Shown here: piece after piece, positions 11,458-27,583 of the stretch
Layout of the letters: the number at the start of each line of letters is the position of its first letter
How positions within the stretch are numbered: the first letter of the stretch is position 1
Source of the DNA: an uncultured bacterium
GTDB taxonomy: Bacteria; Patescibacteriota; Minisyncoccia; Phycocordibacterales; UBA9973
Length of the DNA stretch: 33,650 nucleotides
Assembly (NCBI GenBank): GCA_903834665.1
Contig: CAILJY010000078.1
Coordinates: forward strand, 1-33,650
Reading direction: 5' to 3'
The notes under the pieces: generated by a model
What the model was told of the DNA's origin: nothing
The model's database searches: none
What the model saw: the letters and a program-made list of their open reading frames with translations, nothing else
Program-made: the position numbers and the translations under genes

Positions 11458-13245
11458 TTAATATACTTCTTGCTGATAACACTTCTCACAATACACTATC
11501 TCAGGTCTTTCTGGAGAGTATGATGTGTCAAATTCGTTTTGACATTTTTCTTTTCCATGAGAATGTTCAATAGTATTACTATACTTACTATTTGATGAAT
11601 GATCTCCACTACAACAACACTGTCTTTTATAGAGTTTACTTTTATTTCTTTGAGAAATGCGTTCTTTGTGACGACAATCAACACAATAACGTGGAATTGG
11701 TAATTTGCTATACCTTAAAAATTGTAATTCATTAGGAATTATTTTATAGGCACGTTTACATTTATCACAAGAAATAATCTCTTTTAAAATATCGTCAGAT
11801 ACATCTATTATATCGTCAGATATATTGATAGAATTTATTGAGACAGTATATTCATTTTTAGGAACCTCATACCAATTAGCACCATAAGATAGTATTTCTT
11901 CTTTTGATAAAGGAAATTGTTCAGGAGTTATTGTATCATTGTATGCAAACGGAGAGAATTCGGGTGGGAAAAACTCACCATATTTATAAACTCTACCCTT
12001 ACTATCTATATATGGCATATCATTCATATGTTTACGTATTTCATCTCTCAATTTATAAAATTCTTCTTTATTGTATTTTTTATTTAAAATAACATAATCT
12101 CCACTGTTAACACTAACACTTCCAAAAATATGATTAGCCTTTTTACCACAAAACATACTATATTCAAAATCTATTCCTCCATCCCAACACTCAAAAGAAA
12201 AACGTACCTGTGAGGAATTCCAACCACAAGTCATGCTCTCATATATCTGTTCACTATTATAACCACTTACAGTCGCATCAAAACAGTCTTTACTCCCTGG
12301 TGTTTGGCTATAATGCACATATTTTAAATCCTCTCCTCCTCTAATTAAGTAACTATTTCTAACATTCTTAGAATTTGATATATATTCACCTAGGCAATTA
12401 TAATTTTTAACTCCCTGAGTATATTTTACAGGAAAATTTAACCAAAAATTATTAGCTTTTTCTTTTATTTCCTTAAGGTTAGACCATTTTGATATATTTA
12501 AAGATTTTATTTTTTCATTATATTTTTCTTTAGATAGTTGTTCATTAAAATAACAATAGGATTTATTCCTTAAATTTACACAACCAAAACAATTAGAACA
12601 TCCGGTACAATTCTTAGAAAAATAAACAGATACACATTCGTCACATTGTGATGAAAAATGAGTATCAAAACATTTATTTAACCAAAATGATTCATAACAT
12701 CTTTCTGATGAGGTTATATGAGAATTATCAAAACAATTTTTACAAAAATCTATAGCATTACCGTAAGCTGAATCCTCATCAGTTGATGCATTAAAAATTA
12801 AATAACAATTCTTTAAATTATCAGCATTGCCAGAATAATCGCTTTTTACCATGTTTGTAGCATCTAATTGACGGTGTGGAACTTTTAAACTCAATTCATG
12901 AAGTTGAAATAGAAAGGGTTTTGATCTATCAAAATCTATTCCATAAGAAAATGGATCCCAATTATCGCTAAACCAATAACTGTCTTCATATATTGGGAAT
13001 TTAGCTTCGGGAGGGAAAAGAGCAAGTATCGGGTTGCCAGTAACACCATCTACATTTCTAAAAAGTTTTCTCTCATTACGGAAAAGACATCTTCTTTGGA
13101 ATCTACATTCCGAACACCAAGTGGGTGCTGGTATTTTATATTTAGCAGAAATTGAAATTTTCTCATAGAATAGAAAATCATCCGGCTCGATGATAAATTT
13201 AAGTTTGCAATTCTGACATATTCTAGTTTCTTCTTTATATTCCAT
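11458..13245 (-). CDS. Cys-rich zinc-ribbon/solenoid protein, paralogue 1 (595 aa), function unknown
   Basis: ATG 13245 (MEYKEETRICQNCK) matches the paralogue starts; the track's TTG 13290 lies inside a palindrome. CxxC..F.I...D..FYEK....P..CxxCR ribbon, NCFGCVNLRNK motif, C-terminal YSPERPEIVYCEKCY. Confidence 0.88.
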   Translation of the reverse strand: MEYKEETRICQNCKLKFIIEPDDFLFYEKISISAKYKIPAPTWCSECRFQRRCLFRNERKLFRNVDGVTGNPILALFPPEAKFPIYEDSYWFSDNWDPFSYGIDFDRSKPFLFQLHELSLKVPHRQLDATNMVKSDYSGNADNLKNCYLIFNASTDEDSAYGNAIDFCKNCFDNSHITSSERCYESFWLNKCFDTHFSSQCDECVSVYFSKNCTGCSNCFGCVNLRNKSYCYFNEQLSKEKYNEKIKSLNISKWSNLKEIKEKANNFWLNFPVKYTQGVKNYNCLGEYISNSKNVRNSYLIRGGEDLKYVHYSQTPGSKDCFDATVSGYNSEQIYESMTCGWNSSQVRFSFECWDGGIDFEYSMFCGKKANHIFGSVSVNSGDYVILNKKYNKEEFYKLRDEIRKHMNDMPYIDSKGRVYKYGEFFPPEFSPFAYNDTITPEQFPLSKEEILSYGANWYEVPKNEYTVSINSINISDDIIDVSDDILKEIISCDKCKRAYKIIPNELQFLRYSKLPIPRYCVDCRHKERISQRNKSKLYKRQCCCSGDHSSNSKYSNTIEHSHGKEKCQNEFDTSYSPERPEIVYCEKCYQQEVY

Positions 13246-13250
13246 ATTTT

Positions 13251-13294
13251 TAATTTGGTACAAACTCTGCACGTGCAGAGTTTGTACCAAATTA
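13251..13294. repeat. Perfect 44-bp loopless palindrome between paralogues 2 and 1
   Basis: taatttggtacaaactctgcac|gtgcagagtttgtaccaaatta. Confidence 0.9.
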
Positions 13295-13303
13295 TTTATT
13301 TAA

Positions 13304-15025
13304 TTAATATACTTCATTTTGATAACACTTCTCACAATACACTATCTCAGGTCTATCTGGTGCATAAGAAGTTTCAAAGGTGTTTGTACATCCTTCTTTC
13401 ATACAAGAGCGATGCCACAATTTCATAGGGTTTCTTTGAGATAAGCGTTCATAGTGTCTACAGTTAGGACAAAGATGTGGTAATGGTAGATTCATTCGTT
13501 TATAGAAAGATAGTTCTTCAGGGATGATCCTGAAGGCTTCTGTACACTGTTGATTGCATTCTCCCTTATGATCACATTCTATTATTTTGGTGGTTATATC
13601 ATCATTTACATCATTAATATCATCTGGTATGTCTTTACTATATATATCTATATTGTAATTACGTTCTTCTTTGTCTTTCCACTTATATCCTTGTTCTATG
13701 GCTTGTTCTTTGTTTAATGGAAAATATTCTTGAGCTACTGTCTCATTGTAAGCAAATGGGGATAATTCACTTGGGAAGAATTCTCCGTATTTGTATACTC
13801 TACCACAACTGTCTATGTAGGGCTGATCTGACATATGTTTGATGATTTTGGGGACTAGTTCTTCGTATTGTTCCTTGGTGTATTGTTTATTGAGGATGCA
13901 GTATTGTTTGGAATTGAGTCCGACACAACCAAAGAGATTTCTGGAATTAGACACGCAACTATAAATAAAAGAAGAGTCTGATGTATTACTAATCGCGACT
14001 CCAAATTTTGTATTACTGGCTGATCCTGGTCCATTACATTCATAACAGAGTTCAGGACTAGTAGCAGTAGTAATATCATAATTATCTGAGCCTCCTCCTT
14101 TTAAGAAACGCCAAACATATTTTGAATTATTTGTTTCATAAATATCAAATGAATTATGACAATTATGAGAATGTTCAATACTGTTACCAGAAACATCTTT
14201 AGAGTTTGTGATATCAGCAAATTTTCTAATTGATTTTAATAATTTGTTTTTATAAATACCTTTTATTTTTTCGAGATTAATAAATGAATTTAATTTTAAA
14301 GATTTTATTTTTTCAAAGTATTCTTCTTTTGTGTATTTTTCATTAAAAATATAATACTGTTTATTTCTTAGATTCCAACAACCAAAACAATTTGAACAAT
14401 TTTTACAATTATATAAAAACATAGAATCAATACAGATACTTGCTTTTATACTCAAATAAACATTAAAACAATTATTACAATCAATGCATTCATATAATAA
14501 ATCACTATTACGTGAAGAAAGTAAGTCTAAAGAATTTTTACAATCATTTATACCATCTGAGTAACAGCAATTTTCATTTCTATTTGCAGAAAAGACAAGA
14601 TAACAATTTTTTGAGTCAATCGTCATATTAGTGTAATCACTATTTATCATATTTATTCCACCAACATTAGGAAGTGGTACTTCTTTAAAGAGATCAAAAA
14701 ATTGGATAAAAAATGGTTTAGAAAAATCATAATCTTTTCCGTAAACTAAAGGATCAAACTTATCAGACCACCAAAATTCTTTATCTGACACTTTTAGATC
14801 TTTATCGTTAGAATAGACGGAAATAACCTTTTCACTATGACCTTCTATTGAACAATTAGTTTTATATAGATTTCTAACATTTCTCCAAATCATTCTTCTT
14901 ATCATTCTACATTCCGGGCAAAAGGTTGGAGGGGGGACTTTGATTTTTTCATAGAAAGAGAAATCATTAGGCTCAATAATGAAATCATTCTTACAATTCT
15001 GGCATATTCTAGTTTCGGGATTCAT
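13304..15025 (-). CDS. Cys-rich zinc-ribbon/solenoid protein, paralogue 2 (573 aa)
   Basis: Same architecture; ETRICQNCK start, YAPDRPEIVYCEKCYQNEVY end. Confidence 0.9.
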   Translation of the reverse strand: MNPETRICQNCKNDFIIEPNDFSFYEKIKVPPPTFCPECRMIRRMIWRNVRNLYKTNCSIEGHSEKVISVYSNDKDLKVSDKEFWWSDKFDPLVYGKDYDFSKPFFIQFFDLFKEVPLPNVGGINMINSDYTNMTIDSKNCYLVFSANRNENCCYSDGINDCKNSLDLLSSRNSDLLYECIDCNNCFNVYLSIKASICIDSMFLYNCKNCSNCFGCWNLRNKQYYIFNEKYTKEEYFEKIKSLKLNSFINLEKIKGIYKNKLLKSIRKFADITNSKDVSGNSIEHSHNCHNSFDIYETNNSKYVWRFLKGGGSDNYDITTATSPELCYECNGPGSASNTKFGVAISNTSDSSFIYSCVSNSRNLFGCVGLNSKQYCILNKQYTKEQYEELVPKIIKHMSDQPYIDSCGRVYKYGEFFPSELSPFAYNETVAQEYFPLNKEQAIEQGYKWKDKEERNYNIDIYSKDIPDDINDVNDDITTKIIECDHKGECNQQCTEAFRIIPEELSFYKRMNLPLPHLCPNCRHYERLSQRNPMKLWHRSCMKEGCTNTFETSYAPDRPEIVYCEKCYQNEVY

Positions 15026-15031
15026 GGGGTA

Positions 15032-15040
15032 ATTATAACA
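15032..15040 (-). promoter_or_regulatory. Extended -10 box (TGTTATAAT) 6 nt upstream of the paralogue 2 ATG
   Basis: Minus strand TGTTATAAT-tacccc-ATG; no Shine-Dalgarno. Confidence 0.6.
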
Positions 15041-15120
15041 AAAAAAATTAAAATGCTACAGGACTCTCGGTCAAACAAGACCGCGAGTACATATTATGGT
15101 GTTAAGTCTATATTTATATA

Positions 15121-15154
15121 GCAAAAAACAGCACGAAGGTGCTGTCTTTCTTAA
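15121..15154 (-). terminator. Intrinsic terminator-like hairpin, near copy of 15851-15884
   Basis: Minus strand acagcac-cttc-gtgctgt followed by a T run. Confidence 0.7.
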
Positions 15155-15168
15155 TATTATTAGTTTGG

Positions 15169-15519
15169 CTAAAGTAAAAGTTGTTCATTAAGGAAACCTT
15201 TACCTTTTTTTCTTAAAGAATCAGGATAATGTTTAATTAATAATAATTTACATTTTTTACTATTAATAACATCCTGATATTCTTCTTCTTCAAGAGCGTC
15301 TAATTGACGGGTTGATTCTTTTGGGAACACCATGTCAAACATATTTTCATAATCAAAAAATAAACGCCCTATCCATGAATCAAGAGTCTCTCCATAGATA
15401 AGACAAAGATGAGGTATAGGATAAATAGGTTTTCCCAACCCCAAACCATGAGTTGCGGTTATTGCCATTTTAAAACAAAAATTAACCCCAATAAATTCTA
15501 TTCTGTCCTTGGCTGTCAT
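15169..15519 (-). CDS. Hypothetical protein (116 aa)
   Basis: ATG-started ORF with an AT-rich upstream region and a terminator directly downstream; no recognisable motif. Confidence 0.5.
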   Translation of the reverse strand: MTAKDRIEFIGVNFCFKMAITATHGLGLGKPIYPIPHLCLIYGETLDSWIGRLFFDYENMFDMVFPKESTRQLDALEEEEYQDVINSKKCKLLLIKHYPDSLRKKGKGFLNEQLLL

Positions 15520-15620
15520 AAAAATTATTTTAAATTATTTTTTTATCACATTATCACTTCTAATACCCAGTGTCAATTACTGATATACGCAAAAATCATT
15601 ATCAAATAATATTATTTTAA

Positions 15621-15852
15621 GCAGTGGGGACTACAGGACTCTTCCATTACATGGACAGTATACCTTTCGTATTTTCTATAATTATTAAATTCCAGAAAAT
15701 ATACTCAAGGTCTTCTCGTCCTGTACGAAAAGTAAAGAGGTTTGGAGTCTAATTGTGGTCAGGAATATTTTTGTTGTCGCCACAACAAAAATTTCACGAC
15801 CCTGGCTCATTAGTTTCGTCTGGTAACGAAACATAACTCCGCCTTCCACAGC
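15621..15852 (-). other. Structured non-coding element downstream of tRNA-Ala, ending in a degenerate copy of the tRNA 3' end
   Basis: Nested stems: tacaggac/gtcctgta, gtattttct/agaaaatatac, ggagt/actcc, tttttgttgt/acaacaaaaa, gtttcgt/acgaaac. 15621-15641 matches 15886-15906 at 17/21 positions. Confidence 0.6.
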
Positions 15853-15884
15853 TAAAAAACAGCACGCAGGTGCTGTTTTCTTAA
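15851..15884 (-). terminator. Intrinsic terminator of tRNA-Ala
   Basis: aaaacagcac-ctgc-gtgctgtttttt immediately 3' of the tRNA. Confidence 0.75.
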
Positions 15885-15889
15885 CGCTG

Positions 15890-15962
15890 TGGACCCTACA
15901 GGACTCGAACCTGCCACCCCCTCATTGCAAATGAGGTGCTCTACCAGATGAGCTAAGGGCCC
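15890..15962 (-). tRNA. tRNA-Ala(TGC)
   Basis: GGGCCCTTAGCTCATCTGGTAGAGCACCTCATTTGCAATGAGGGGGTGGCAGGTTCGAGTCCTGTAGGGTCCA; cloverleaf, G3:U70 Ala determinant; CCA not encoded. Confidence 0.96.
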
Positions 15963-16042
15963 ATGACAATTAATAATTACTAATTAAGAATTAATAATTA
16001 AGATATTCATATATTACTATATTTATATTTTTTTGCAATAGT

Positions 16043-17389
16043 CTAAAACATTGAAATTATTGCGGCGATTGCTGTGATACTCATCAGTACTGTCGTTACC
16101 CATCCTATTATTTTTGTTGTTAATGAATTTTTAAATTCTCCCATAATTTTTTTACTACTACTTATTTTCACAATAAATACAAGTATTACAGGAGCGATAA
16201 TCCCATTGGCAATAGCGGAATATAAAAGAGCCTTTATTGGATCGATACCAATAAAATTAATTAAGATACCAATAATTATTGAGACAGCTATAACTCCATA
16301 GAAAGCATGAGCAGTTTTAAATTTACGATATAGACCTTCTTTCCACCCGAAACTTTCAGTTATTGCATATGCGGCAGATCCTGCAAGTACAGGGATTGCC
16401 AATAATCCTGTACCAATAATTCCTATTGCAAAAAGAAGAAATGCCCATGATCCAGCAAGAGGTTGTAATGCTCGAGCGGCATCAGCGGCTGTTTCGATAT
16501 TTGTAATTCCATTTGCAAAAAGAGTGTGTGAACATACTGCGATTATAAAAAACATTACAAGATTAGATAGAAACATTCCAACCCATATATCTATCCGCAT
16601 TTCTTTTATTTCAGCATGATTTGTATTTTTACGAGAGAGAATAGTTTTTTTACCCATTGATATTTCTTCTTCTATTTCTTGCGAAGTCTGCCAAAAAAAC
16701 AAGTAAGGGGATATGGTTGTTCCTAGAATCCCCGTAATGAGAAGGATTTGGCTCTTAGAGAGGGTAATTTGGGGTATAAATCCATCTTTCAATAATAAAA
16801 GCCAATCCATGTTTATAATCAATCCTGTTACAATATATGCGAAAACAGCAATAACTAACCACTTAAGATATTTTGTATATATTCTGTATGGGACAATTAT
16901 TTCTAACAGTAATCCAGCTAACCCCGTAAAAATAACTAAAAATATAAAAGAAAATTTTGGAGCAAGGAGTTGAATAGCTTTTGCCATCGCTCCTAAGTCT
17001 GCTCCGATATTTAGAGTATTAGCAAAAAATAAAAGTATAGTACAAACATAAAGTATCTTCTTAGAATAATTGTGTTTTATATTAGAGGCTAAACCACGAC
17101 CAGTAACAAGAGCAATTCGAGCACACATTTCTTGCACCGTTGCTACAAGTGGATATACCCAAGCAGCCATCCAAATTAAACCATTACCGTACTGAGCACC
17201 AGCTTGTGAGTAAGTTGTAATTCCAGAAGGGTCGTCATCAGCTGCCCCGGTTATAATTCCGGGTCCGAGTTTTTTTAAATAGTTTTCTCCTTCTTTAATT
17301 AAATTTTCTCTTTTATTAATTTCGGGAGGCGGAAAAGATTGAACTTGTGGTATTGTTTCTAAAGGGGATATTGTTTCTTCTTCGTTCAT
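16043..17389 (-). CDS. NRAMP-family divalent metal cation transporter
   Basis: LGPGIITGAADDDPSGITTYSQAGA, QEMCARIALVTGRGL, GTTISPYLFFWQ; many hydrophobic helices. DPSG rather than the MntH DPGN motif, so not called mntH. Confidence 0.9.
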   Translation of the reverse strand: MNEEETISPLETIPQVQSFPPPEINKRENLIKEGENYLKKLGPGIITGAADDDPSGITTYSQAGAQYGNGLIWMAAWVYPLVATVQEMCARIALVTGRGLASNIKHNYSKKILYVCTILLFFANTLNIGADLGAMAKAIQLLAPKFSFIFLVIFTGLAGLLLEIIVPYRIYTKYLKWLVIAVFAYIVTGLIINMDWLLLLKDGFIPQITLSKSQILLITGILGTTISPYLFFWQTSQEIEEEISMGKKTILSRKNTNHAEIKEMRIDIWVGMFLSNLVMFFIIAVCSHTLFANGITNIETAADAARALQPLAGSWAFLLFAIGIIGTGLLAIPVLAGSAAYAITESFGWKEGLYRKFKTAHAFYGVIAVSIIIGILINFIGIDPIKALLYSAIANGIIAPVILVFIVKISSSKKIMGEFKNSLTTKIIGWVTTVLMSITAIAAIISMF

Positions 17390-17442
17390 GATAAATCTAT
17401 TATACTTTTTATTATAATTTGATACAATGTATAAGTAACATT

Positions 17443-18930
17443 ATGTCTTTAAATAAACCGAATAAAATTCAAATAATTAAATATGCTCCTCCACCTCCTG
17501 ATTTACCCACACTTGGCAAATCAGATTCGAGTGAGGTTGTTTTTATTGGCAGAACAAATTATGTCGCAGCTCTTGAAGAAAAGAAGTTTGTCTTTGGGAT
17601 CAAGCGTATTGATCGTAGACGCCATATGTATATCATTGGTAAATCAGGAGTTGGTAAATCTAAACTTCAAGAATTGATGATTCGTCAAGATATCGCTTAT
17701 GGGCATGGTATTTGTATTATTGACCCACACGGAGAATTGATTGAAGATATTTTAAATTTTATTCCTGAAGAAAGAATCGAAGATGTTTGTGTTATTGATC
17801 CGGGTGATATTGAATATCCCTCATCATTTAATCCACTTGCTAATATTGATCCTACTTTCAAACATCAACTCACTCAAGGATTGATAGAAGTTTTACGTAA
17901 ACAATTTGGAGCAAATTGGACACCACGTCTTGAGCACGTTTTTCGTTTTACGGTTTTAGCTTTACTTGATTATCCTCATGCGACAATGAGGGGGATGATC
18001 TCAATGCTGACTGATCGTAATTATCGTCAAAAGGTTGTTGAGTATATAGAAGATGACATGGTAAAACGTTTCTGGGCAATAGAATTCGCTGATTGGTCTG
18101 AAAAGTTTGATACAGATGCTATTATTCCTTTGGTTAATAAATTAGGACAGTTTCTTTCTGATCCAATGCTTCGTAATATTTTTGGACAGAAACAAAATAA
18201 AATAGATATAGAGCAATTGATGAATGAACAAAAGATTCTTTTGATTAATTTATCAAAAGGAAAAATAGGGGAGGAAAATTCTTCTTTCTTTGGAGCTATG
18301 TTTTTGACTAAGATTAAACAAGCTGGTATGGCTCGTGCCAAATTAGAACCCAAAGATCGTCATGATTTTTATTTATATGTAGACGAGTTTCAAAATATAG
18401 TGACAGATACATTTGAAAATATTCTTTCTGAAGCTCGTAAATATGGGATCAATCTTATTGTGGCACATCAATACGTAGGTCAATTATTGCCGAAAGTGCA
18501 ACAAGCTGTTCTTGGAAATATTGGATCAATTATTTCGTTCCGTGTTGGTGGAGATGATGCGACCAAGCTCAAGCCAGAATTTGCTCCGGTTTTTGATGTT
18601 AAAGATATGATCAATCTGGGAGTTGGAGAATTTTATATAAAAATGACAATAGATGGAGAGAGTTATGATCCATTTTCAGCTGAGACTCTTAAAGTGCTTC
18701 CTGCTACTCATCCTTCCTACCGCAAGCAAGTTATGGATGCTTCTCGTCGTAAATACGCAATTCTAGCAGATGAAGCTCAGAAATTAATCGCGGAAGAAGA
18801 AGCAACTATTATCCGAAGTGCTCAAGAAAAGGCCGCTATAACTGGTAATAAAACAAAAGAAGAAGATACTGATAAAGAGCAAGAAGATAAAATAGTCAAA
18901 GAAGAAAAAGGTGGAGAGCCACTAATTTAA
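17443..18930 (+). CDS. VirD4/TraD/TrwB-like (HerA-FtsK superfamily) P-loop ATPase 1, no TM anchor
   Basis: DRRRHMYIIGKSGVGKS Walker A, IDPHGEL, YLYVDEFQN Walker B, LSEARKYG, AHQY. ATG 17443 preferred. Confidence 0.88.
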   Translation: MSLNKPNKIQIIKYAPPPPDLPTLGKSDSSEVVFIGRTNYVAALEEKKFVFGIKRIDRRRHMYIIGKSGVGKSKLQELMIRQDIAYGHGICIIDPHGELIEDILNFIPEERIEDVCVIDPGDIEYPSSFNPLANIDPTFKHQLTQGLIEVLRKQFGANWTPRLEHVFRFTVLALLDYPHATMRGMISMLTDRNYRQKVVEYIEDDMVKRFWAIEFADWSEKFDTDAIIPLVNKLGQFLSDPMLRNIFGQKQNKIDIEQLMNEQKILLINLSKGKIGEENSSFFGAMFLTKIKQAGMARAKLEPKDRHDFYLYVDEFQNIVTDTFENILSEARKYGINLIVAHQYVGQLLPKVQQAVLGNIGSIISFRVGGDDATKLKPEFAPVFDVKDMINLGVGEFYIKMTIDGESYDPFSAETLKVLPATHPSYRKQVMDASRRKYAILADEAQKLIAEEEATIIRSAQEKAAITGNKTKEEDTDKEQEDKIVKEEKGGEPLI

Positions 18931-18953
18931 TTAAGAATTAAAGATTAAGAATT

Positions 18954-20603
18954 ATGGATAGAAAATGCGAACACTGCCAGAAAGAATTCCACATTTCAGT
19001 AGGGGAACTTTCTATGTATGAAAAGGTTGGGATAGAGATACCGATACAGTGTTTTTTGTGTAGAATAAAACACCTATTATATTTTTGGACATTTGGAAAG
19101 TTTAGAAAAGGAACATCTGATTTATCAGGAGAAAGTTTAATTACAGTTCTTCCTGTTAATAGTAGATATCCAATTTATACTCTACATGAATGGTATAGTG
19201 ATAATTGGGATGCAATGGATTTTGGGGTTGATTATGATCCGATGCAACCATTTTTTAAACAGTTGCAAAATTTACAAGAAAAAATTCCACGTCCACATCA
19301 AAATGGAGCGAAGAGTACTAACTGTGACTGGTGTGATGATGTTTGGAGTTGTAAAGATTCTTATCTATCTCGCTCAATGGTTGATTGCGAAAATTTATTC
19401 TATTCATACAGAAACATAAAAGTAAAGAATTCAATTGACCTTGTTGTTTGTTTTGATTCAGAAAGGTGTTTTGAGTGTTTTAATTGTTATAATTCTTACA
19501 AACTTTTTTATTCTAGAAATTCAAAAGATTGTATAGAATCTTACTTCTTGGGAGATTGCCGTAATTGTCAAAACTGTTTTATGTGTTGGAATTTAAGAGG
19601 GAAATCATATTGTATAGAAAATATTCAATATACCAAAGAAGAATATTTTGAAAAGTTAAAATCTTTTAATATTGATTCATATAATTCGGTTAAAAATTAT
19701 AAAAAAATATTTGAAGAAATTGCTCAAAAAGAAATAGTGCACAAGGAGAATTTTAATTTAAGATCTTATAATTGTAGTGGAAATTATTTATTAGATACAA
19801 AAGATTGTAGCAATTGTAATACAATATCAGGATCTGAAGATTGCTATAATTGTGTTCGTAATGGTTGGTTAAAATCTTCTATTGATATTGTAGGGTGTAT
19901 GAATTTGGAATTATCAGGGAATTGTAGTTCTTGTCAACCAAGCGGTTATTCTCTAAAGTACTCTAGTTGGTCACCATCAAGATTCTCTGAATATCTTGAC
20001 CTATGTGTAGAATGTGAATATTGTTTTGGTTGTGTTGGATTGAAAAAGAAGAAATATTGTATTTTAAATAAACAATATGAAAAAGATGAGTATGAAAATC
20101 TAAAAAATAAAATAATAGATGATATGAAAATGCGGGGTGAATATGGACAGTTCTTACCATATTCTATGTCAACTGGGCCTTTTAATTTTTCGACAAGTTT
20201 TTTATATTTTCCTAAAACCAAAAAAGAGGATGTTTTGAAACTTGGTGGTTATTGGGAAGATTTGGATGAAAGTCACATTGAAGGGATACCGACTAGTCAT
20301 TTGCCTGATTCGATTAATGATGTTGATGAAAAAATTTGCTCCCAAGCCTTGATTTGTCCGGAGACAGGTTGGCGTTTTAATATTGCTCAAAATGAATTAA
20401 TTTTTTATAAACAAAATAATATTCCCTTACCCAGGTATCATTTTGATGTTCGAATAAAAGAATTACTTAAATATTCAACTGTTTTAGATACATCATTGTA
20501 TGAATGTTGTTATTGTAAGAAAGAAATAGATGCTTATTATCCGAAAGATTGGGGATATAAAAATATTGCTTGTGAAAATTGCTATAAGCAAAATCTAAAC
20601 TAA
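18954..20603 (+). CDS. Cys-rich zinc-ribbon/solenoid protein, paralogue 3 (549 aa)
   Basis: CEHCQKEF...CFLCR, NCFMCWNLRGKSYCIEN and YCFGCVGLKKKKYCILNKQY motifs, C-terminal CCYC...CENCY; 23 nt after ATPase 1. Confidence 0.88.
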   Translation: MDRKCEHCQKEFHISVGELSMYEKVGIEIPIQCFLCRIKHLLYFWTFGKFRKGTSDLSGESLITVLPVNSRYPIYTLHEWYSDNWDAMDFGVDYDPMQPFFKQLQNLQEKIPRPHQNGAKSTNCDWCDDVWSCKDSYLSRSMVDCENLFYSYRNIKVKNSIDLVVCFDSERCFECFNCYNSYKLFYSRNSKDCIESYFLGDCRNCQNCFMCWNLRGKSYCIENIQYTKEEYFEKLKSFNIDSYNSVKNYKKIFEEIAQKEIVHKENFNLRSYNCSGNYLLDTKDCSNCNTISGSEDCYNCVRNGWLKSSIDIVGCMNLELSGNCSSCQPSGYSLKYSSWSPSRFSEYLDLCVECEYCFGCVGLKKKKYCILNKQYEKDEYENLKNKIIDDMKMRGEYGQFLPYSMSTGPFNFSTSFLYFPKTKKEDVLKLGGYWEDLDESHIEGIPTSHLPDSINDVDEKICSQALICPETGWRFNIAQNELIFYKQNNIPLPRYHFDVRIKELLKYSTVLDTSLYECCYCKKEIDAYYPKDWGYKNIACENCYKQNLN

Positions 20604-20704
20604 AAATACCAATAAGTCCGTCTTAGTTATATGTTATTAACAAATTTATATATAATGTTATAATTAATTTGTAAAGGTCGTAATCTAATATATCTATATA
20701 TTTT

Positions 20705-21010
20705 ATGGTATTTATATATACAACATGCAAAAATATGGATGAAGCAGAAAAACTCGGGACTCTAATTGTAAGTAAAAAAATAGCTGCTTGTGTTGATTTT
20801 TGGCCTATCTCATCTTGTTATGATTGGCAAGGATCTTTTCAGTGTGTATCTCAAGCAATGCTTTTAATTACAACTTTTGAAGCTAAATTAGAAGAAGTCA
20901 ATCAAATTATTTCTGAGAATCATACTTATAGTATTCCACTTATTGCAGGAGTAGATGTTCGTCGTATTAATCACCCATATAAAGAATGGATGATGGAAGT
21001 TATAGAATAA
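20705..21010 (+). CDS. cutA: Divalent-cation tolerance protein CutA
   Basis: YTTC....EAEKL...IV.KKIAACV...PI.S.Y.WQG ... H.YSIP ... Y.EW, 101 aa. Confidence 0.88.
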   Translation: MVFIYTTCKNMDEAEKLGTLIVSKKIAACVDFWPISSCYDWQGSFQCVSQAMLLITTFEAKLEEVNQIISENHTYSIPLIAGVDVRRINHPYKEWMMEVIE

Positions 21011-21012
21011 TT

Positions 21013-21432
21013 ATGCCTAATAAAAAAGTTGTAATTTTTGGAGTCTTTGATGGTATTCATGAAGGACATTTAGCTTTTATAAAAGAAGCAAAAAAGCAAG
21101 GCAATAATCTTGTGGCTATTGTCGCACGTGATGAAATGGTTCAGAAATTAAAAGGTAAAATTCCAAAATATAATGAGGTTGAAAGAATTAATTCACTTTT
21201 AGAAATAGAAGATATTGATTTAGTTCGATTGGGAGATCTTTATATTGAAACATATAATACACTTATGGAAATTAATCCAGATATTATTTATCTTGGTTAT
21301 GACCAACAAGATCTTTCTAATAATTTAAATAAAGTAATAAAAAAAGGAATTCTTAAAAATATAAAAATTATACACTGAAATCCATATAAGCCAGAAATTT
21401 TTCATTCATCAATTTTAAATAAAGATAAATAA
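21013..21432 (+). CDS. Cytidylyltransferase-family protein (FAD synthase RibL/TagD-like); in-frame TGA at 21376-21378
   Basis: FGVFDGIHEGH (HxGH), VARD, PDIIYLGYDQ. The frame continues past TGA as NPYKPEIFHSSILNKDK to TAA 21432. Confidence 0.8.
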
Positions 21433-21470
21433 TCATTATAAAATTAAAATAACCGAACACATTGGGACGG

Positions 21471-22082
21471 TTATTTTTTTAAAATATTATTTTCTTTTTC
21501 GTTTCTCCATTTTCTAATTAATGGAATTAAAATTACAGATGATAAAATCATTTCAGAGACAGCAAAGCCAACTTCTGCTATTGTCCATGCTTTTGTGAGA
21601 ATTATTGATATGAAGCTAACAATGACAAAAAATATATACCCAGTCAGATTATATTTAACTTTAGGGTATTTAAATGTTTGTATTATTAAATATACTCCAA
21701 TAATAGTTTCTGACGAAACTGAAAAAATAAAAGTTACATATGAACCTAGTATTACCCATACAATAAGACAAATGCTTATGAGTATTATTGTAGTGATTTC
21801 AATGATGGTACATTTTATAAATCGTCTTTGGTAAAAAAGTATCGAAGACATAATAAGTGAACCAACAGTAAAACCAAAAGCCATAGGATCCATTTCAATT
21901 CTAATTTTGCCACCAGAGAACATTGTTATTCCGTCTAGTATTAAATATAGAATCCAGGTTAAAAATGTATGACTTTTGTCTTCTGGCTCTTTTACCAACC
22001 CTACTATTAATGGGGTGTAAGGGAATAGGGCTATTACAAATGTCAGTCACCATGTAAATGAATAGGGAATCATTGCTTCCAT
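21471..22082 (-). CDS. Multi-pass membrane protein; in-frame TGA at 22047-22049 near the N-terminus
   Basis: Hydrophobic ORF. Upstream of the track's TTG 21998 the frame reads MEAMIPYSFTW*LTFVIALFPYTPLIVGLVKEP, adding a first TM helix. Confidence 0.65.
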
Positions 22083-22165
22083 TGTTTGTAAATTATAGGT
22101 TTTCTCTTTAAGATAATCCTATAAATTGATATTGTCAATCGATTAATATATAATATATATAATAT

Positions 22166-24403
22166 ATGGGAACTGAAATTCCACACAATCGAGATATAAC
22201 TTATTTTGGGAAGACGAACTTTCGTAATAGTGAAGATGTTTTTGGTATAAAAAGAAAAGATCGTCGTCAGCATATGTATATCTTAGGAAAATCTGGTACA
22301 GGTAAATCTGTACTCCTTTCTAATCTAATTGTTCAAAATATTCAAAACGGAGAAGGTGTTTGTGTGGTTGATCCACACGGGGAGCTTGTAGAAGAAATAT
22401 TACATTTAATTCCAGATCATAGGGTTAAAGATGTTATTTATTTTAATCCAGCCGACTCCGATTTTCATATAGGTTTTAATGTTATTCAATTAGATGATCC
22501 AAAATATAAGCATCTAGTGGCTTCTGGTCTTATGGGAATTTTTACAAAGATTTGGGCTAACGCTTGGAGTTCTCGTATGGAATATATTTTAAATAATGCA
22601 ATTTTAGCTTTACTTGATACTCCAGGAACAACTCTTTTAGGTATTCCAAGATTGTTAGTGGATAAAGATTATCGTCAAATGATAATAGGGAATTTAAAAG
22701 ATCCTGTTGTTAAGGCTTTTTGGATTCATGAATATGAACAATGGAGAGAACAATTTAGAAATGAAGCGATTGCTCCGATTCAAAATAAAGTTGGACAATT
22801 CCTTTCAACTTCAATTATTAGAAATGTCGTTGGTCAGCCAAAATCAACAATTGATATTTTTAAAATAATGAATGAAGGAAAAATTTTCTTGGTCAATGTT
22901 TCGAAAGGACGTATTGGAGAAGATAATTCTGCTCTGTTAGGAGGAATGATAATTACTAAGATCCAGCTTGCAGCAATGGAGCGTGTTCGTATTCCTGAGG
23001 ATGAAAGAAAAGATTTTTATTTATATGTTGATGAATTCCAAAATTTTGCAACAGATTCATTTGCCAATATTTTATCTGAAGCTCGTAAATATAGACTCAA
23101 TCTAACTATTGCTCACCAATATACAGCTCAGCTTGAGAATAAAGATGGGTCTAAGGTTCGTGATGCTGTTTTTGGGAACGTTGGGACAATGATTATTTTT
23201 CGTGTGGGGGCTGATGATGCAGATTTTCTAGAAAAAGAATTTGAACCAGAATTTACAGCTCAAGACTTAGTGAATCTTCCAAACTTTTATGTTTATTTAA
23301 AATTAATGATTGACGGAGTCACTAGTCGTCCTTTTTCAGCGACAACACTTCCTCCTATTAAAGTTGATTTATCTAAAGGGGTAAAAGATAAGATTATAGA
23401 ATCATCTCGTAAACTTTATACTCGTTCAAGAATAGAAGTTGAAAATGAAATATCTAAATGGAGTGGAATGCTTCAAGTTGGAGAAGGTGAAGCAAAATAT
23501 AAAGCAGATTGTTCTAACTGTAAAAAATCCACAATGGTTCCTTTTGAGCCGAAAGAAGGAAGGCCAGTATATTGTAAAGAATGTATGTTTAAAATTAAAA
23601 CTGGTGATTTGAAACCAGAACAGGGATTTTTGGCTTCCCGTTCTTCAAATCAAGAAGAAAAAGCTTCCAATGAGGCTTTAGCTATCTTAGGGATTGAATT
23701 TAATCAATCAGATTCAAAAAATAATGGTTTTCAGAAGAATAAATCTTCCGATTTGAGAGATTCGACAAAATCATCATTTAAAGATAAACCTCAATTTACA
23801 CCATCTAATAATACTAATAAAGTTAATCAACCAAATTTTATTGAGAAGAAGAAACATTTAGGACCATCTCCTTTACTTAAGGGATTGTTACAAAAAATTG
23901 CCTTAGGAAATAAAAAAGAAAAAGAAGAAAAAAATAATTTTGAAGTAAAAGAAGTAGTTACTCATCCTAAAGAAGTAATGTCTTTATCAAAATTGAAAGA
24001 AAATAATAATCATACTGTTAAAATCGAAACAAACGCTCCAGTAAAAGAGGCTTCAGAAGAAAAAAAAGCTTCCTTAAAAGACGCATTTTCTAAAATGATT
24101 ATGCATTCAAATCACATAGAAGAAAAAAAAGAAGAAGCTGTCATTGTAAAAGAAGAAATTAAATCTGATTTTGTAGAATCAAAAAAAGAAGAAGTTATAA
24201 AAATAGAAGAAAAACAAGAAGAACAAACAAAAGAGCAGGTTACCCCTTCTAAAGATGAAATTAAAAAACCAATAGAAGCTGAAAATATTGATAATAAAGA
24301 AGAAATTATATTAGATGATATAAAAAGTAAAGATGTTTCTTGGAAAAAACGTAAAGCACAAAAAGAGGTGCCAGAGGATATTTTATTAAAGGTCTTAGAA
24401 TAA
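22166..24403 (+). CDS. VirD4/TraD-like ATPase 2 with CxxC-x17-CxxC domain and K/E-rich disordered tail
   Basis: GKSGTGKS, DPHGEL, YLYVDEFQN, LSEARKYRL; CSNC-KKSTMVPFEPKEGRPVY-CKEC; ~260 aa low-complexity C-terminus. Confidence 0.9.
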   Translation: MGTEIPHNRDITYFGKTNFRNSEDVFGIKRKDRRQHMYILGKSGTGKSVLLSNLIVQNIQNGEGVCVVDPHGELVEEILHLIPDHRVKDVIYFNPADSDFHIGFNVIQLDDPKYKHLVASGLMGIFTKIWANAWSSRMEYILNNAILALLDTPGTTLLGIPRLLVDKDYRQMIIGNLKDPVVKAFWIHEYEQWREQFRNEAIAPIQNKVGQFLSTSIIRNVVGQPKSTIDIFKIMNEGKIFLVNVSKGRIGEDNSALLGGMIITKIQLAAMERVRIPEDERKDFYLYVDEFQNFATDSFANILSEARKYRLNLTIAHQYTAQLENKDGSKVRDAVFGNVGTMIIFRVGADDADFLEKEFEPEFTAQDLVNLPNFYVYLKLMIDGVTSRPFSATTLPPIKVDLSKGVKDKIIESSRKLYTRSRIEVENEISKWSGMLQVGEGEAKYKADCSNCKKSTMVPFEPKEGRPVYCKECMFKIKTGDLKPEQGFLASRSSNQEEKASNEALAILGIEFNQSDSKNNGFQKNKSSDLRDSTKSSFKDKPQFTPSNNTNKVNQPNFIEKKKHLGPSPLLKGLLQKIALGNKKEKEEKNNFEVKEVVTHPKEVMSLSKLKENNNHTVKIETNAPVKEASEEKKASLKDAFSKMIMHSNHIEEKKEEAVIVKEEIKSDFVESKKEEVIKIEEKQEEQTKEQVTPSKDEIKKPIEAENIDNKEEIILDDIKSKDVSWKKRKAQKEVPEDILLKVLE

Positions 24404-24419
24404 CTTATTTATTATTTTT

Positions 24420-25847
24420 ATGAATAAAAAAATAATCAAACTACAAATTGTATTTGTCGTTATGTTTTTGTTTGGTATAAATTTTGCAGACGCTAGTGTC
24501 GTAATTAATGAAGTTCAATTAAGTCCGACAGAAAATAGATTTATTGAATTATATAATAATGGAAGTTCATCGGTTGATCTTACCGATTGGTATATTCAAA
24601 GAAAAACAATAGGAGGAAGTACTTTTGGGTCTTTAGTTTCTAAAACATATTTTCAAGGTAAAAATATTCAATCAAATAGTTATTTTGTAATTTCAAGGAG
24701 TGATATGAATGAATCAGATATTATTTATCCAGGGTTAACTTTAACTGAATCTAATACAATACAATTAAAAAATTCTAACCAAGAATTGGTAGATAAAATT
24801 GGATGGGGAGATGTAACTGATTGTGGAAAAATTTGTGCCCCAAATCCAATTGATTCTAAAAGTATTCAACTTGTAGAGGGTAGTTGGGTTACTAATACTC
24901 CAACTCCTGGTGAATCAAATCTAACTGAGAGTAATACTTCTGATCAAGATATAGAAGAAAATGAAAACAATAATGAAAAGGATCAACCAGAAATATTAAA
25001 AATATCATCTAAAATAATATCACCTAAAATAGCAATAGCAGGGATTCCTTTTTATCTCAATTCTTTGACGACATCAAATAGAGGCAATACTTATGCTGTT
25101 GGAAAATTTGTTTGGAATTTTGGAAATGGGACTTCTAGAACTCTAAATACATCAGAACCATTTTTGTCCTCGTATGAATATGAAGGTGAATATATGGCCA
25201 CTTTGTCATATTTTAGTAGTGTCTTTAGTAAAGTTCCTGATGCAACTGATAAAATAATAATTAAAGTCGTACCATCTGAGATTTACATAAATTCTGTTGG
25301 AGATATTAGTGATCCATTTATTGAAATTGGGAATAAATCAAATTATGATATTGTTTTATCAAACTGGGTAATTATGGCCGGAATTCATTATTTTTTGATT
25401 CCAGATGGGACTGTTATTATGTCTGGAAAGAAAATTAAATTATCACCAAAAGTTACTGGATTTACTAAAGAAGATCTTTCTTTTATAACTATTACAAACC
25501 CCAATAAAGAGATAATTGTAACTTATCCGCAATTGAATAAAAAGTTAATTTATAATACAAATTCGGTATCTAAAAATACAAATAACAATTCAATATCTTC
25601 CATTACAAAAAATGAGCTTGATCCTATATTGGCTGATTCTAAAATTATAAATTTAAATGATTTAAGTGCCAATGCCTTAGATTCTAGTAAAAATATTCCA
25701 AAATCAGCTTATCCACTTATTGGGTTACTTGTGATTATTGGTATTGGGATCACTTCTTTTTTTATAGTTAAACAAAAAACTAATACAAATGAGATTAATT
25801 ATAAAGAAAGTGGCATCAGAGCCGAAGATATGACAATAGTGGAGTAA
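24420..25847 (+). CDS. Secreted, membrane-anchored lamin-tail-domain + PKD protein
   Basis: Signal peptide ending ADA, VVINEV...FIELYNNG...VDLTDW (LTD), TPTPGESN, WNFGNG (PKD), second LTD-like FIEIGN...LSNW, C-terminal TM. Confidence 0.82.
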   Translation: MNKKIIKLQIVFVVMFLFGINFADASVVINEVQLSPTENRFIELYNNGSSSVDLTDWYIQRKTIGGSTFGSLVSKTYFQGKNIQSNSYFVISRSDMNESDIIYPGLTLTESNTIQLKNSNQELVDKIGWGDVTDCGKICAPNPIDSKSIQLVEGSWVTNTPTPGESNLTESNTSDQDIEENENNNEKDQPEILKISSKIISPKIAIAGIPFYLNSLTTSNRGNTYAVGKFVWNFGNGTSRTLNTSEPFLSSYEYEGEYMATLSYFSSVFSKVPDATDKIIIKVVPSEIYINSVGDISDPFIEIGNKSNYDIVLSNWVIMAGIHYFLIPDGTVIMSGKKIKLSPKVTGFTKEDLSFITITNPNKEIIVTYPQLNKKLIYNTNSVSKNTNNNSISSITKNELDPILADSKIINLNDLSANALDSSKNIPKSAYPLIGLLVIIGIGITSFFIVKQKTNTNEINYKESGIRAEDMTIVE

Positions 25848-25883
25848 TGGACAAAATAATGCTAAAAATGTAAGATTCTTATT

Positions 25884-27548
25884 ATGGAAACAAAAAATTG
25901 TCAAAAATGTAGGCAGAATTTTACTCTTGAACAAGATGATTTTTCTTTTTATGAGAAGATGAAAGTGTCAGTACCAAACATTTGTCCAGACTGTCGTTTC
26001 AAAATGCGAGCAATGTGGAGGAATGAAATGACTTTATATTCTGGTCAGGAATGTGAAATGTGTGGGAAGAAGGTTATAACTATTTATAATCCTAAATCAT
26101 CATATATTAAATATTGTCATGATTGTTTTTATTCTGAAAAGTGGAGCCCCAAAGATTATACTAAACCATATGATAAATCAAAAACTTTTTTTGATCAAAT
26201 GGGAGAATTTTTAAAAGAAGTTCCAAAGAATTGCTTGGGTATTTCTACTGGTGATGGTCAAAATATAAATAGTGATTATATAAATATGGCTTCTGGTTGC
26301 AAGAATTGTTATCTTGTTTTTAACACAAGTCCTGCTGAAGAATTATTATACTCAAGAGGTGTAAAAAATGGAACTTTTTCTTCTGATGTATATTTTGGAG
26401 TGAAATTTGAGAATTGTTATGATTGTGTCAGTGTTCAAGAATCAGCTAATGTCTTCTGGGGGCAAAATGTTACAGGTTGTGTTGAATCCTATTTTATATT
26501 AAATGGTAGTGGACTTACAAACTGTTTTGGCTGTGTAAATTTAAGGAACAAAAGTAATTGTTGGTTCAATGAACAATTAACATCAGAAGAATACAAAAAA
26601 AGATTGAGTGAGGTAATGGGTAGTTATACAAAAATTGTGGAAGCTCAGAAAAAGTTTCAAGAATTTTGTTTACAGCATCCACATAGAGAGAATAATAATT
26701 TAAAAACAGTAGATTGTGTAGGAGATTATCTAACAGAATGTAAAAATGTTGTTAACTCTTTTGAAGTTTCTAAATCAGAGAATTGTCGTTATCTTTTTTC
26801 TTCAAAAGTGATAAAGGATTCATTAGGCACTACAGGTTTTGGAACAAAATCAGAACAATTATTGGAAGTAGTTGCCACTGGGTATTGTAGTAATGTAATA
26901 GGTTCATATTGGGCAGAAAATTCTAGTAATATAATGTATTCTTTTGATTTGAGAAATTGTCAGGATTGTATTGGTTGTGATGCATTAAGAAATGGTAAAT
27001 ACTCTATTTTTAATAAAGAATATACAAAAGAAGAATATGAAGAACTTAAAAATCATATAGTGAAAGAACTTATAGCTTTGGGTATTCATGGATTAATGAT
27101 GCCACCAGAGATTGCTCCATTTGCATATAATGAAACAATAGCACAAGATAATATACCCTTAACTAAAGAGGAATCATTATCTCAAGGCTTCAGATGGGAA
27201 GATGACATACAAATGACTAAAGGCAAAGAGACTATACAGTCAAATGAAATAGAAGATAATATAAAAGATATTAAAGATTCTATAACAAGTGAAATATTGA
27301 AATGTATAAATTGTGAGAGGAATTATAAAATTATAGAACAAGAATTATTATTTTATCGAAAGATGAATTTACCAATTCCAAGAAGATGTTTCTATTGTCG
27401 TCATCAAGATAGAATTAAAAGACGAGGGCCTTATAAATTCTGGGATCGCAAGTGTGATCATTGTGATAAAGATATAAAGACAAATTATTCTCCAGAAAGA
27501 AAAGAAATAATTTATTGTGAAAAATGTTATCAACAAGAAGTAATATAA
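25884..27548 (+). CDS. Cys-rich zinc-ribbon/solenoid protein, paralogue 4 (554 aa)
   Basis: All four ribbons intact: CQKC..CPDC, CEMC-x17-CHDC, CINC..CFYC, CDHC-x17-CEKC. Confidence 0.9.
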   Translation: METKNCQKCRQNFTLEQDDFSFYEKMKVSVPNICPDCRFKMRAMWRNEMTLYSGQECEMCGKKVITIYNPKSSYIKYCHDCFYSEKWSPKDYTKPYDKSKTFFDQMGEFLKEVPKNCLGISTGDGQNINSDYINMASGCKNCYLVFNTSPAEELLYSRGVKNGTFSSDVYFGVKFENCYDCVSVQESANVFWGQNVTGCVESYFILNGSGLTNCFGCVNLRNKSNCWFNEQLTSEEYKKRLSEVMGSYTKIVEAQKKFQEFCLQHPHRENNNLKTVDCVGDYLTECKNVVNSFEVSKSENCRYLFSSKVIKDSLGTTGFGTKSEQLLEVVATGYCSNVIGSYWAENSSNIMYSFDLRNCQDCIGCDALRNGKYSIFNKEYTKEEYEELKNHIVKELIALGIHGLMMPPEIAPFAYNETIAQDNIPLTKEESLSQGFRWEDDIQMTKGKETIQSNEIEDNIKDIKDSITSEILKCINCERNYKIIEQELLFYRKMNLPIPRRCFYCRHQDRIKRRGPYKFWDRKCDHCDKDIKTNYSPERKEIIYCEKCYQQEVI

Positions 27549-27583
27549 TTACATATATCAGCTATAGCTGATATATGTAATTA
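27546..27583. repeat. Perfect 38-bp loopless palindrome starting at the stop codon of paralogue 4
   Basis: taattacatatatcagcta|tagctgatatatgtaatta. Confidence 0.9.

Follow-up and report, generated by a model that had tools for sequence, protein, structure and literature searches.

What do the coupling-type ATPases that are widespread in the Patescibacteria handle? A survey of these bacteria counted 5,713 homologs of VirD4-type type IV coupling proteins (T4CPs) in 2,918 genomes, only 148 of them near virB4, and their role is left open in the portion of the survey considered here (PMC12102498). We analyzed a window of 33,650 nucleotides that represents one contig (C78) of a 687-kb genome (86 contigs, about 30% G+C). 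The genes in the window have their closest protein matches in Paceibacteria/Nomurabacteria-type bacteria of the Candidate Phyla Radiation (CPR), and they include two T4CP-like ATPases, here called ATPase 1 and ATPase 2, interleaved with four cysteine-rich (Cys-rich) paralogs. Judging from the same portion of the survey, these ATPases are very probably the same proteins as the orphan homologs counted there. The locus and its relatives give a first clue to what such orphans handle, in that the type represented by ATPase 1 (ATP1-type) is linked, through both inheritance and gene position, with a very large family of Cys-rich proteins that has no name. The region holds an accessory module of two parts, an ATP1-type ATPase and one to many Cys-rich paralogs, which is widespread in Paceibacteria and is located beside a second, near-universal ATPase (ATP2-type) that is here paired with a membrane protein with an LTD domain.

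The six genes are present as open reading frames (ORFs) where the initial annotation had placed them. ATPase 1 (17419-18930, + strand) is of the short type and probably starts at ATG 17443, according to the family consensus. As had been reported, the ORF is followed after 23 nt by paralog 3 (18954-20603, +; 549 aa, 38 Cys). ATPase 2 (22166-24403, +) is of the long type, and its ORF is separated by 16 nt from that of the LTD protein (24420-25847, +), which is in turn separated by 36 nt from paralog 4 (25884-27548, +; 554 aa). Paralog 1 (11458-13245, −; 595 aa from ATG 13245) and paralog 2 (13304-15025, −; 573 aa, 33 Cys) are encoded on the opposite strand. The claim that four Cys-rich paralogs of about 550-595 aa lie within 16 kb was confirmed, and the proteins align from end to end, with 30-45% identity to paralog 1. 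The whole genome encodes 11 Cys-rich copies and three ATPases, of which four copies and two ATPases are packed into the 16 kb of the window, and up to about 3% of the 687 kb is taken up by the Cys-rich family.

In many species, genes of the ATP1-type and of the Cys-rich family are inherited together and lie next to each other in the same orientation, and the Cys-rich family almost never occurs without ATP1, while ATPases can occur without the family. Among 151 genomes drawn evenly from the class, where the ATP1-type was delimited by a gap in E-values from 9.5e-170 to 1.9e-138, the ATPase family was present in 149 genomes, the ATP1-type in 24 and the Cys-rich family in 22, such that it was missing from 129. 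Both ATP1 and the Cys-rich family were identified in 19 genomes, ATP1 only in five, the Cys-rich family only in three and neither of them in 124 (Fisher odds ratio 157), and the same table drawn up by family code contained 9, 3, 2 and 68 entries (p 4e-8), although kin are not independent in either table. The three genomes with only the Cys-rich family comprise two that are 84% complete and yielded fragmentary hits, and a third (G037) that is considered below. In 14 of the 19 genomes with both families, a Cys-rich gene is located at most 2 kb from ATP1, as compared to 1.1 expected by chance, and the single-copy genomes G021, G059 and G105 have kept their sole Cys-rich gene beside ATP1. Among close relatives, the Cys-rich family is present in all 10 genomes with an intact ATP1-type, and cases of co-decay were also observed. 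The ATP1 gene of G003 has two stops and that of G011 is divergent (64% identical), and the Cys-rich family was not found in either genome, while a stop-containing ATP1 adjoins a broken Cys-rich gene in G073. Neither the ATP1-type nor the Cys-rich family is present in G001 and eight other genera.

The association is also seen when starting from the Cys-rich genes. We examined 80 loci from different species, each centered on a Cys-rich member with a flank of up to 10 kb, and found an ATPase within the flank in 36 of them, nearly always co-oriented. This corresponds to 61 ATPase ORFs in 1.32 Mb of Cys-centered loci versus three in the 0.687 Mb of the whole genome studied here. After clustering of the ORFs, the ATPase was the commonest neighbor family (33 loci), followed by DnaJ (13), CysS (12) and DnaK (12). 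The order of an ATPase, a variable number (n) of Cys-rich genes and an ATPase recurs in three unrelated flanks, namely grpE-(Cys)-paaX-dnaK-ATP2-Cys x n-ATP1-dnaJ in 11 loci, secD-secF-sigma-two small transmembrane (TM) proteins-ATP1-(CutA)-Cys x n-(ATP2) in nine loci, and NRAMP-ATP1-(CutA, CTase)-Cys-ATP2-LTD-murA-murB in four loci and in the window. Adjacency, co-occurrence and the three flanks thus bear out the conserved link between the two families that the initial annotation had proposed, and we estimate the probability that they are functionally coupled at about 0.85. A complex prediction for ATPase 1 (residues 30-460, 28-row alignment) with paralog 3 (45-row alignment) returned a score of 0.00, which is no evidence either way.

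Both ATPases of the window are scored above the Pfam cut-offs for T4CP families, with 35.4 bits for T4SS-DNA_transf (cut-off 20.1) and 31.6 and 56.3 bits for TrwB_AAD_bind (cut-off 20.5), as well as for TraG-D_C. The Walker A and B motifs read GKSG[VT]GKS and DEFQN, and the two proteins are 46% identical over 414 aa (E 2e-134). A 19-residue hydropathy scan detected no hydrophobic or TM segment in either ATPase or in any Cys-rich paralog, in agreement with the earlier description of two soluble VirD4-like ATPases. FtsK_SpoIIIE gave no match in the two window ATPases, and the third ATPase of the genome scored under the cut-off for this family (18.1 bits versus 24). No match was obtained when the sequences of solved chains were searched with ATPase 1. 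The AlphaFold2 model of this protein (mean pLDDT 70, core 84-94) has helices at residues 145-269 inserted between the Walker motifs, and a Foldseek search with the model placed TrwB first (E 1.8e-10), then DotL and Cag-beta (TM-score 0.51), ahead of HerA, DndH-C and VirB4.

The orphan T4CP-like ATPases of Patescibacteria fall into distinct, old types. Across the loci, the short type is 470-530 aa long and lacks the zinc ribbon in all 29 cases (0/29), and its C-terminus is EP[LMI][IV] after a disordered linker in all 28 complete proteins (EPLI in ATPase 1), which from its sequence looks like a docking motif. The long type measures 540-850 aa and contains a canonical CxxC-x17-CxxC ribbon in 26 of 28 proteins, at about residue 450-480 and followed by a low-complexity tail, with the C-terminus KE[VI]PE[DE][VI]L.K.LE in 19 of 26. 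In ATPase 2, the ribbon (nt 23498-23593) is followed by a low-complexity, K/E-rich tail of about 265 aa ending in KEVPEDILLKVLE (tail end ...KEVPEDVLRKILE). The ATP1-type proteins are 65-91% identical across 27 loci. Horizontal gene transfer of ATP1 alone was considered and rejected, because the mean pairwise identities of ATP1 (75.8%) and the ATP2 core (75.9%) in 23 loci are equal and correlated (r 0.92).

The third T4CP-like ATPase of the genome (949 aa; C83:20529-23375, locus L093:8530-11376) has an N-terminal domain of about 520 aa, and its gene is flanked by map and ndk where the secY-adk cluster ends. In the secDF context, a 461-aa TM protein encoded upstream of ATP1 is collinear with this N-terminal domain (E 4e-6, 23% identity), which suggests that the ATPases have membrane-associated partners in cis or in trans. 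A VirB4-like gene (PF19044, 88.7 bits) is located on a separate contig (C12), and a PF19044 match was present in 19 of 21 relatives. PF03135 was discarded as a probe for VirB4, since this model is the wrong one and none of the 21 relatives exceeded its cut-off, whereas PF19044 finds 19.

The window ATPases share the P-loop core with a helical insert with the T4CPs (TrwB of R388, VirD4, TraD, DotL and Cag-beta), and the match to DotL is a match to the Legionella coupling complex. They differ from these proteins in that they have no N-terminal TM domain, and as previously noted, no VirB or relaxase neighbors turned up in the scans of the window proteins, which included no search aimed at relaxases; the VirB4-like gene is found elsewhere. 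They also differ in belonging to a set of three ancient chromosomal paralogs with a conservation at the level of DnaK, and in having no sequence match to solved chains. A TM-less subfamily of T4CPs is recognized in TraJ of plasmid pIP501, which is dependent on a separately encoded small membrane protein, TraI (PMC7434980). Similarly, ATP2 is here followed by the LTD membrane protein, and in another lineage two small TM proteins (clusters 7 and 13) are encoded ahead of the short ATPase, with cluster 7 sharing homology with the N-terminal domain of the third ATPase. Unlike TraJ and TraI, the module is neither plasmid-borne nor located within a tra operon. The portion of the Patescibacteria survey considered here draws no link from its T4CP homologs to a Cys-rich family, LTD proteins or CutA (PMC12102498), and the literature that we searched, outside its supplementary tables, describes neither the Cys-rich family nor a link between this family and the ATPases. 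New here are the non-chaperone context, the split into ATP1 and ATP2, the 151-genome table with its co-decay, the C-terminal end motifs and the recurrent CutA neighbor.

The four Cys-rich paralogs of the window contain 32-38 Cys each, and the family mean is 36 per member, with a range of 19-49. The proteins are cytoplasmic and have no signal peptide. No Pfam or NCBIfam model exceeded its cut-off for the Cys-rich proteins, NCBIfam gave no family for paralogs 1-3, and all named database relatives are called "hypothetical", save one stray CcmH/NrfF label. In the ESM Atlas, the family is only represented by unnamed clusters or by "putative zinc-binding" labels. A profile built from the four sequences identified 5,017 representative clusters (50% identity) at E <=1e-3, of which 2,209 were at <=1e-30. 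A search of 2.9 million viral contigs identified 92 stretches with the pattern and zero relatives of the family.

The AlphaFold2 model of paralog 2, based on 85 sequences, is of high confidence (pLDDT 90.8, pTM 0.90) and predicts a fold in which zinc ribbons cap two narrow β-solenoids. The modeled protein starts with a zinc ribbon and a helical linker, followed by the two solenoids (at about residues 120-230 and 266-380), with a helix and a copy of the motif FGC..L..K.Y.I.N.QY.KEEY closing off each one. The solenoids are followed by a conserved YGEFFP..SPFAYNET segment, a second ribbon that resembles the first, and a terminal CxxC-x17-CxxC-like ribbon. The solenoid bodies vary among members, in contrast to the conserved ribbons and caps, and the only conserved cysteines are those of the ribbons and a few in the caps, while most of the solenoid cysteines vary. 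The two central domains of the model are β-solenoids, the nearest matches of which are to the Tenebrio antifreeze protein (1ezg) and to left-handed β-helix (LbH) proteins such as LpxD and GlmU. However, the scores fit the common arrangement only, and the Cys-rich proteins carry no catalytic signature. A Foldseek search of the PDB and BFVD with the whole model gave no match at E <=1e-3 and weak matches to LpxD and GlmU, and a wide structure search (VIA) gave generic β-helix matches only, with Z 5.7 for 1ezg (rmsd 8.3 Å, 82 aligned residues) and Z 3-3.6 for LbH proteins. The family profile matched the sequences of solved structures only in LIM-type chance hits (E 0.035 or weaker).

To describe the relationships within the family, we inferred a phylogeny with FastTree from 206 copies of at least 450 aa, in which 85 copies located too close to the end of a locus were left without a label as near to or far from an ATPase. 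The clades contain approximately one copy per locus and are old, orthologous subfamilies, and the family is therefore a set of old and distinct members rather than a fast-evolving array. Four clades are nearly always linked to an ATPase (13 near and 0 far, 13/0, 11/0 and 8/1), among them those of paralog 2 (13/0), paralog 3 (13/0) and paralog 4 (8/1). Other clades are mostly dispersed, as exemplified by the clade of paralog 1, with two copies near and five far. A single clade of ATPase-adjacent copies was rejected, as the tree contains 23 state changes versus 29.8 ± 2.0 for shuffled labels. Tandem arrays contain up to 11 co-oriented Cys-rich genes (in locus L080 and others), several with 4-bp overlaps of start and stop, and end at a long ATPase. 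Within one genus, the number of matches ranges from 0 to 30.

The initial annotation had drawn attention to a zinc-ribbon motif shared by ATPase 2 (CSNC-x17-CKEC) and the end of paralog 4 (CDHC-x17-CEKC), and both motifs are present. The ribbon in ATPase 2 (residues 444-476) is a full member of the CxxC-x17-CxxC domain (TIGR04272 / PF23477 zf_Tbcl_2), with 48.8 bits for PF23477 (cut-off 27) and 50.8 bits for TIGR04272 (cut-off 36). By contrast, the tail of paralog 4 (nt 27447-27539) is scored below the curated cut-offs, with 18.4 bits for PF23477 and 15.8 bits in NCBIfam, as are the six Cys-rich tails listed in a whole-genome scan for PF23477 (16.5-24.1 bits, cut-off 27). Since they keep the spacing and the [IV]YC..C signature (..P....[IV]YC..C), the paralog tails are likely divergent relatives of the ribbon. 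The N-terminal and third ribbons of the Cys-rich proteins weakly resemble PF13451 zf_Tbcl; at the N-terminus, residues 5-44 of paralog 2 gave 17.1 bits (cut-off 24) and the other paralogs no match. The CxxC-x17-CxxC ribbon is a generic domain, which binds zinc in small proteins of Methanosarcina (PMC12704099). A 182-aa protein in the same genome (C70:33434-33982, locus L094:5435-5980) combines RGG repeats, a canonical CxxC-x17-CxxC ribbon (PF23477, E 1e-16) and a lysine/valine-rich tail. Its sequence looks like that of a nucleic-acid binder, and it is encoded 4.2 kb upstream of another Cys-rich copy. The earlier suggestion that the shared ribbon serves as a docking module is weakened by these data, because the ATPase type that is best linked to the Cys-rich family has no ribbon, the canonical ribbon is also present in the RGG/lysine-rich protein, and the paralog tails are below threshold.

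Unlike the ATP1-type, the ATP2-type is near-universal and independent of the Cys-rich family. Within the order to which the window belongs, ATP2 is paired with the LTD protein in 10 of 12 loci from relatives (L081-L092). Seven of the loci with the pair come from genomes that have no Cys-rich gene at this site, six of which lack the family altogether and one of which (G008) has copies elsewhere. In G008 and G011, the two ATPases adjoin each other, and no Cys-rich gene separates them. The run of ATPase 2, LTD protein and paralog 4 was previously described as tight, and the gaps of 16 nt and 36 nt agree with this, but it is better described as a core pair with an accessory gene, because the pair is kept in relatives without the Cys-rich family. 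We rejected the idea that the LTD protein belongs to the module in general, as its gene is rarely a neighbor of the family outside this order and is present in only three of the 80 Cys-centered loci. Of its predicted features, the LTD domain (two matches; Pfam LTD, E 1e-20) and the membrane location were recovered, the latter from a hydropathy profile with an N-terminal signal-like segment, a C-terminal TM segment and a short cytoplasmic tail, whereas Pfam detected no PKD domain. The protein could be a membrane tether of the soluble ATPase 2.

How, then, may ATP1 and the Cys-rich proteins work together? T4CPs are known to bind adaptors as well as substrates. The C-terminal tail of TraD of the F plasmid binds TraM, and the Legionella coupling complex includes a zinc protein, DotN. 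Since known T4CPs are assisted by adaptors and accessory proteins, and on the model of the TM-less TraJ and TraI of pIP501, we tentatively suggest that the ATP1 motor has the Cys-rich proteins as its clients or adaptors, with a probability of roughly 0.4. A hexameric ATP1 motor would take the Cys-rich proteins as specific clients or adaptors, the conserved ends of which (zinc ribbons and solenoid caps) would be the constant docking parts, while the variable solenoid bodies would represent cargo or a recognition surface. The motor would recruit, remodel or pass on these proteins, possibly to a type IV secretion system (T4SS) with the VirB4-like ATPase that is encoded elsewhere. The open question of the T4CP homologs thereby becomes one of testable protein pairs with the conserved ends as candidate docking sites, and if the Cys-rich proteins are cargo, they offer a handle on protein delivery by ultra-small episymbionts. 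A bolder proposal, which we consider unlikely, is that ATP1 is the coupling motor of a so-far unrecognized protein-delivery route in Paceibacteria, which would pick zinc-finger-capped solenoids by their conserved ends and feed them to a T4SS for export or injection into host cells. If true, the 5,017 clusters of the Cys-rich family would make up the first family of effectors from CPR episymbionts for which a recruitment ATPase has been identified.

Several observations weigh against a coupled system of motor and clients. No ATPase is within reach in 44 of the 80 Cys-centered loci, nor is there one near seven of the 11 copies in this genome, which are dispersed, the other four being those beside ATPases 1 and 2. 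An intact ATP1 occurs without the Cys-rich family in four genomes (G168, G128, G029 and G072), in two of which (G168 and G128) ATP1 and ATP2 are placed directly side by side with no Cys-rich gene between them. The genome of G037, which is 99% complete, contains five Cys-rich copies and neither the ATP1- nor the ATP2-type, its sole ATPase match being to the third, long type. The co-occurrence of ATP1 and the Cys-rich family could also largely reflect a single origin and shared descent. In a benchmark of eight loci, the mean identity was 88.0% for ATP1 and 85.3% for DnaK, and from the sequences, such DnaK-level conservation together with old, orthologous Cys-rich subfamilies fits a housekeeping machine better than host-directed effectors. 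Finally, rigid, zinc-stabilized solenoids are awkward for threading.

The ATPases may instead act on nucleic acids. T4CPs and their FtsK and HerA relatives are DNA motors, HerA, DndH-C and VirB4 follow directly after the T4CPs in the structural search, and the ATPases have weak NCBIfam matches to the DNA-translocating ATPase CedD. In such a machine, the T4CP-like hexamers would move or remodel DNA or RNA, and the Cys-rich proteins would be factors for binding specificity or loading through their zinc ribbons rather than cargo. ATP2, with its ribbon and disordered tail, would act with the extracellular LTD partner in the uptake or processing of DNA for nucleotide salvage, and the Cys-rich proteins would then bear on DNA/RNA salvage in these bacteria. 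The weak NCBIfam match of the LTD protein to the extracellular nuclease ExeM, the genes around the third ATPase (for Adk, an amino-acid-kinase-family protein, Ndk, an HD protein and a β-CASP RNase) and the occurrence of the canonical ribbon of ATP2 in the RGG-repeat protein all agree with this idea. So do residues 1-60 of the Cys-rich protein, a region that holds the first ribbon and is net basic (+4), and the Arg-rich stretches after both FY-type ribbons in the family consensus. However, the paralogs are acidic overall (pI 5.7-6.5), the recurrent neighbors include no nuclease, helicase, relaxase or recombinase (no search was aimed at relaxases), and a canonical FtsK is already encoded elsewhere in the genome (C85:3878-6082). 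A role of the ribbon and the LTD domain in DNA binding is here only putative, and we regard the nucleic-acid machine as possible, though rather unlikely. We regard as improbable a function in proteostasis or metal buffering, where the Cys-rich proteins would be zinc or metal stores or redox- or zinc-dependent holdases that the ATPases load, unload or unfold together with DnaK/DnaJ, CutA and NRAMP. The high content of Cys and the zinc binding of the domain in Methanosarcina are as expected for such a function, the module is located between dnaK and dnaJ in one clade (the 11 loci of the first flank), with more copies after grpE, and CutA and NRAMP are neighbors of ATP1. Yet the chaperone setting is restricted to a single context out of three and NRAMP to close kin of the window, most solenoid cysteines vary, unlike in a dedicated array of metal sites, and the absence of the family from 129 of the 151 genomes is odd for basic metal homeostasis.

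Patchy accessory distribution, copy numbers of 0 to 30 within a genus, tandem arrays and variable solenoid bodies are also features of conflict systems for defense or offense, in which the solenoids would be sensors or effectors and the ATPase their motor, as in HerA-containing defense. PADLOC gave weak matches of the ATPases to mad8 (E 1e-14 to 1e-16) and HerA models, but nothing for the Cys-rich proteins beyond one weak match to Csx20 (E 0.002), and effector domains (nuclease, Sir2, TIR or others) were absent from the vicinity. Furthermore, the subfamilies are old groups of orthologs that contribute about one copy to each locus, the ATPases are as conserved as DnaK, no relative was present in the viral contigs, and the flanks consist of housekeeping genes rather than defense islands, all of which makes a conflict system quite improbable. 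The absence of any functional link, with two expanded CPR families brought together by inherited synteny or a permissive insertion site, appears very improbable. It would explain the copies far from ATPases and the four genomes in which the ATPases adjoin each other without an intervening Cys-rich gene (G008, G011, G168 and G128). On the other hand, it does not predict adjacency in 14 of 19 genomes, three unrelated flanks, single-copy genomes that keep their copy beside ATP1, or the distribution of 19, 5, 3 and 124 genomes with its co-decay cases. The alternative of the initial annotation that the locus is a mere coincidence of two large families is rejected, given that adjacency and co-occurrence are far above expectation.

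Other genes are interspersed among those of the module between 11.4 and 27.6 kb. These encode an NRAMP transporter, a CutA1-family small protein, a cytidylyltransferase-like protein and a 175-aa membrane protein, in addition to the LTD protein. The NRAMP gene (16043-17389, −; Pfam Nramp, E 2.5e-83) is divergent from ATPase 1, and its cluster (22) was identified in six loci, all window-like, such that it is a marker of this flank only and falls outside the module. The CutA gene (20705-21010, +; Pfam CutA1, E 1e-24) belongs to a cluster (9) present in nine loci. The gene maps show eight of these, each of which includes an ATPase, and in seven of them CutA is directly beside the short type; it also occurs beside ATP1 in two other contexts. 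The cytidylyltransferase-like gene (20986-21378, +; Pfam CTP_transf_like) is placed after CutA in window-like loci (cluster 6, 11 loci). A metal-handling cluster, which had been offered as another alternative, finds little support here, as NRAMP represents lineage-specific synteny, though CutA recurs beside the short ATPase.

Long AT-rich palindromes of 17-22 pairs are located at several gene ends in the window (13251-13294; 27546-27583 and 11420-11453; 28401-28441) and may be terminators or members of a dispersed palindrome family. The first is a perfect 44-nt palindrome of two directly adjoining 22-nt arms, which is located between the stop of paralog 2 and the ATG of paralog 1 and is terminator-like in sequence. 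The ORF of paralog 1 is open to TTG 13290, and as the N-terminus extended to this codon overlaps the palindrome, ATG 13245 is the most likely start. The 38-nt palindrome at 27546-27583 (17 pairs) is located just past the stop of paralog 4 and is related to the sequence at 11420-11453 past the stop of paralog 1. From their sequences, these two appear to be terminator-like elements that were duplicated along with the adjoining gene ends (3′). Two 26-nt direct repeats that contain a hairpin (15123-15148 and 15854-15879) are 92% identical and 731 nt apart. They bracket a family-less ORF of 116 aa (15169-15519, −), just downstream of tRNA-Ala (15889-15962, −), and may represent either a terminator that occurs twice or a scar left by a small insertion.

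Outside the module, the window starts with a giant ORF (2-8314, +) of at least 2,770 aa with an open 5′ end, which contains six Calx-beta, three bacterial surface Ig-like and several Fn3/purple-acid-phosphatase-N-like repeats and, because of these repeats, is probably a cell-surface protein. It is followed (8373-11355, +) by genes for a stand-alone response-regulator receiver protein, an ABC ATPase with a C-terminal extension of about 220 aa, and a MacB/FtsX-type permease. On the other side of the module, a MurA-like protein (28437-29948, −; EPSP_synthase family) is fused to an N-terminal Cro/C1-type helix-turn-helix domain and encoded next to murB and alanine racemase, and its cluster (42) recurs in window-like loci.

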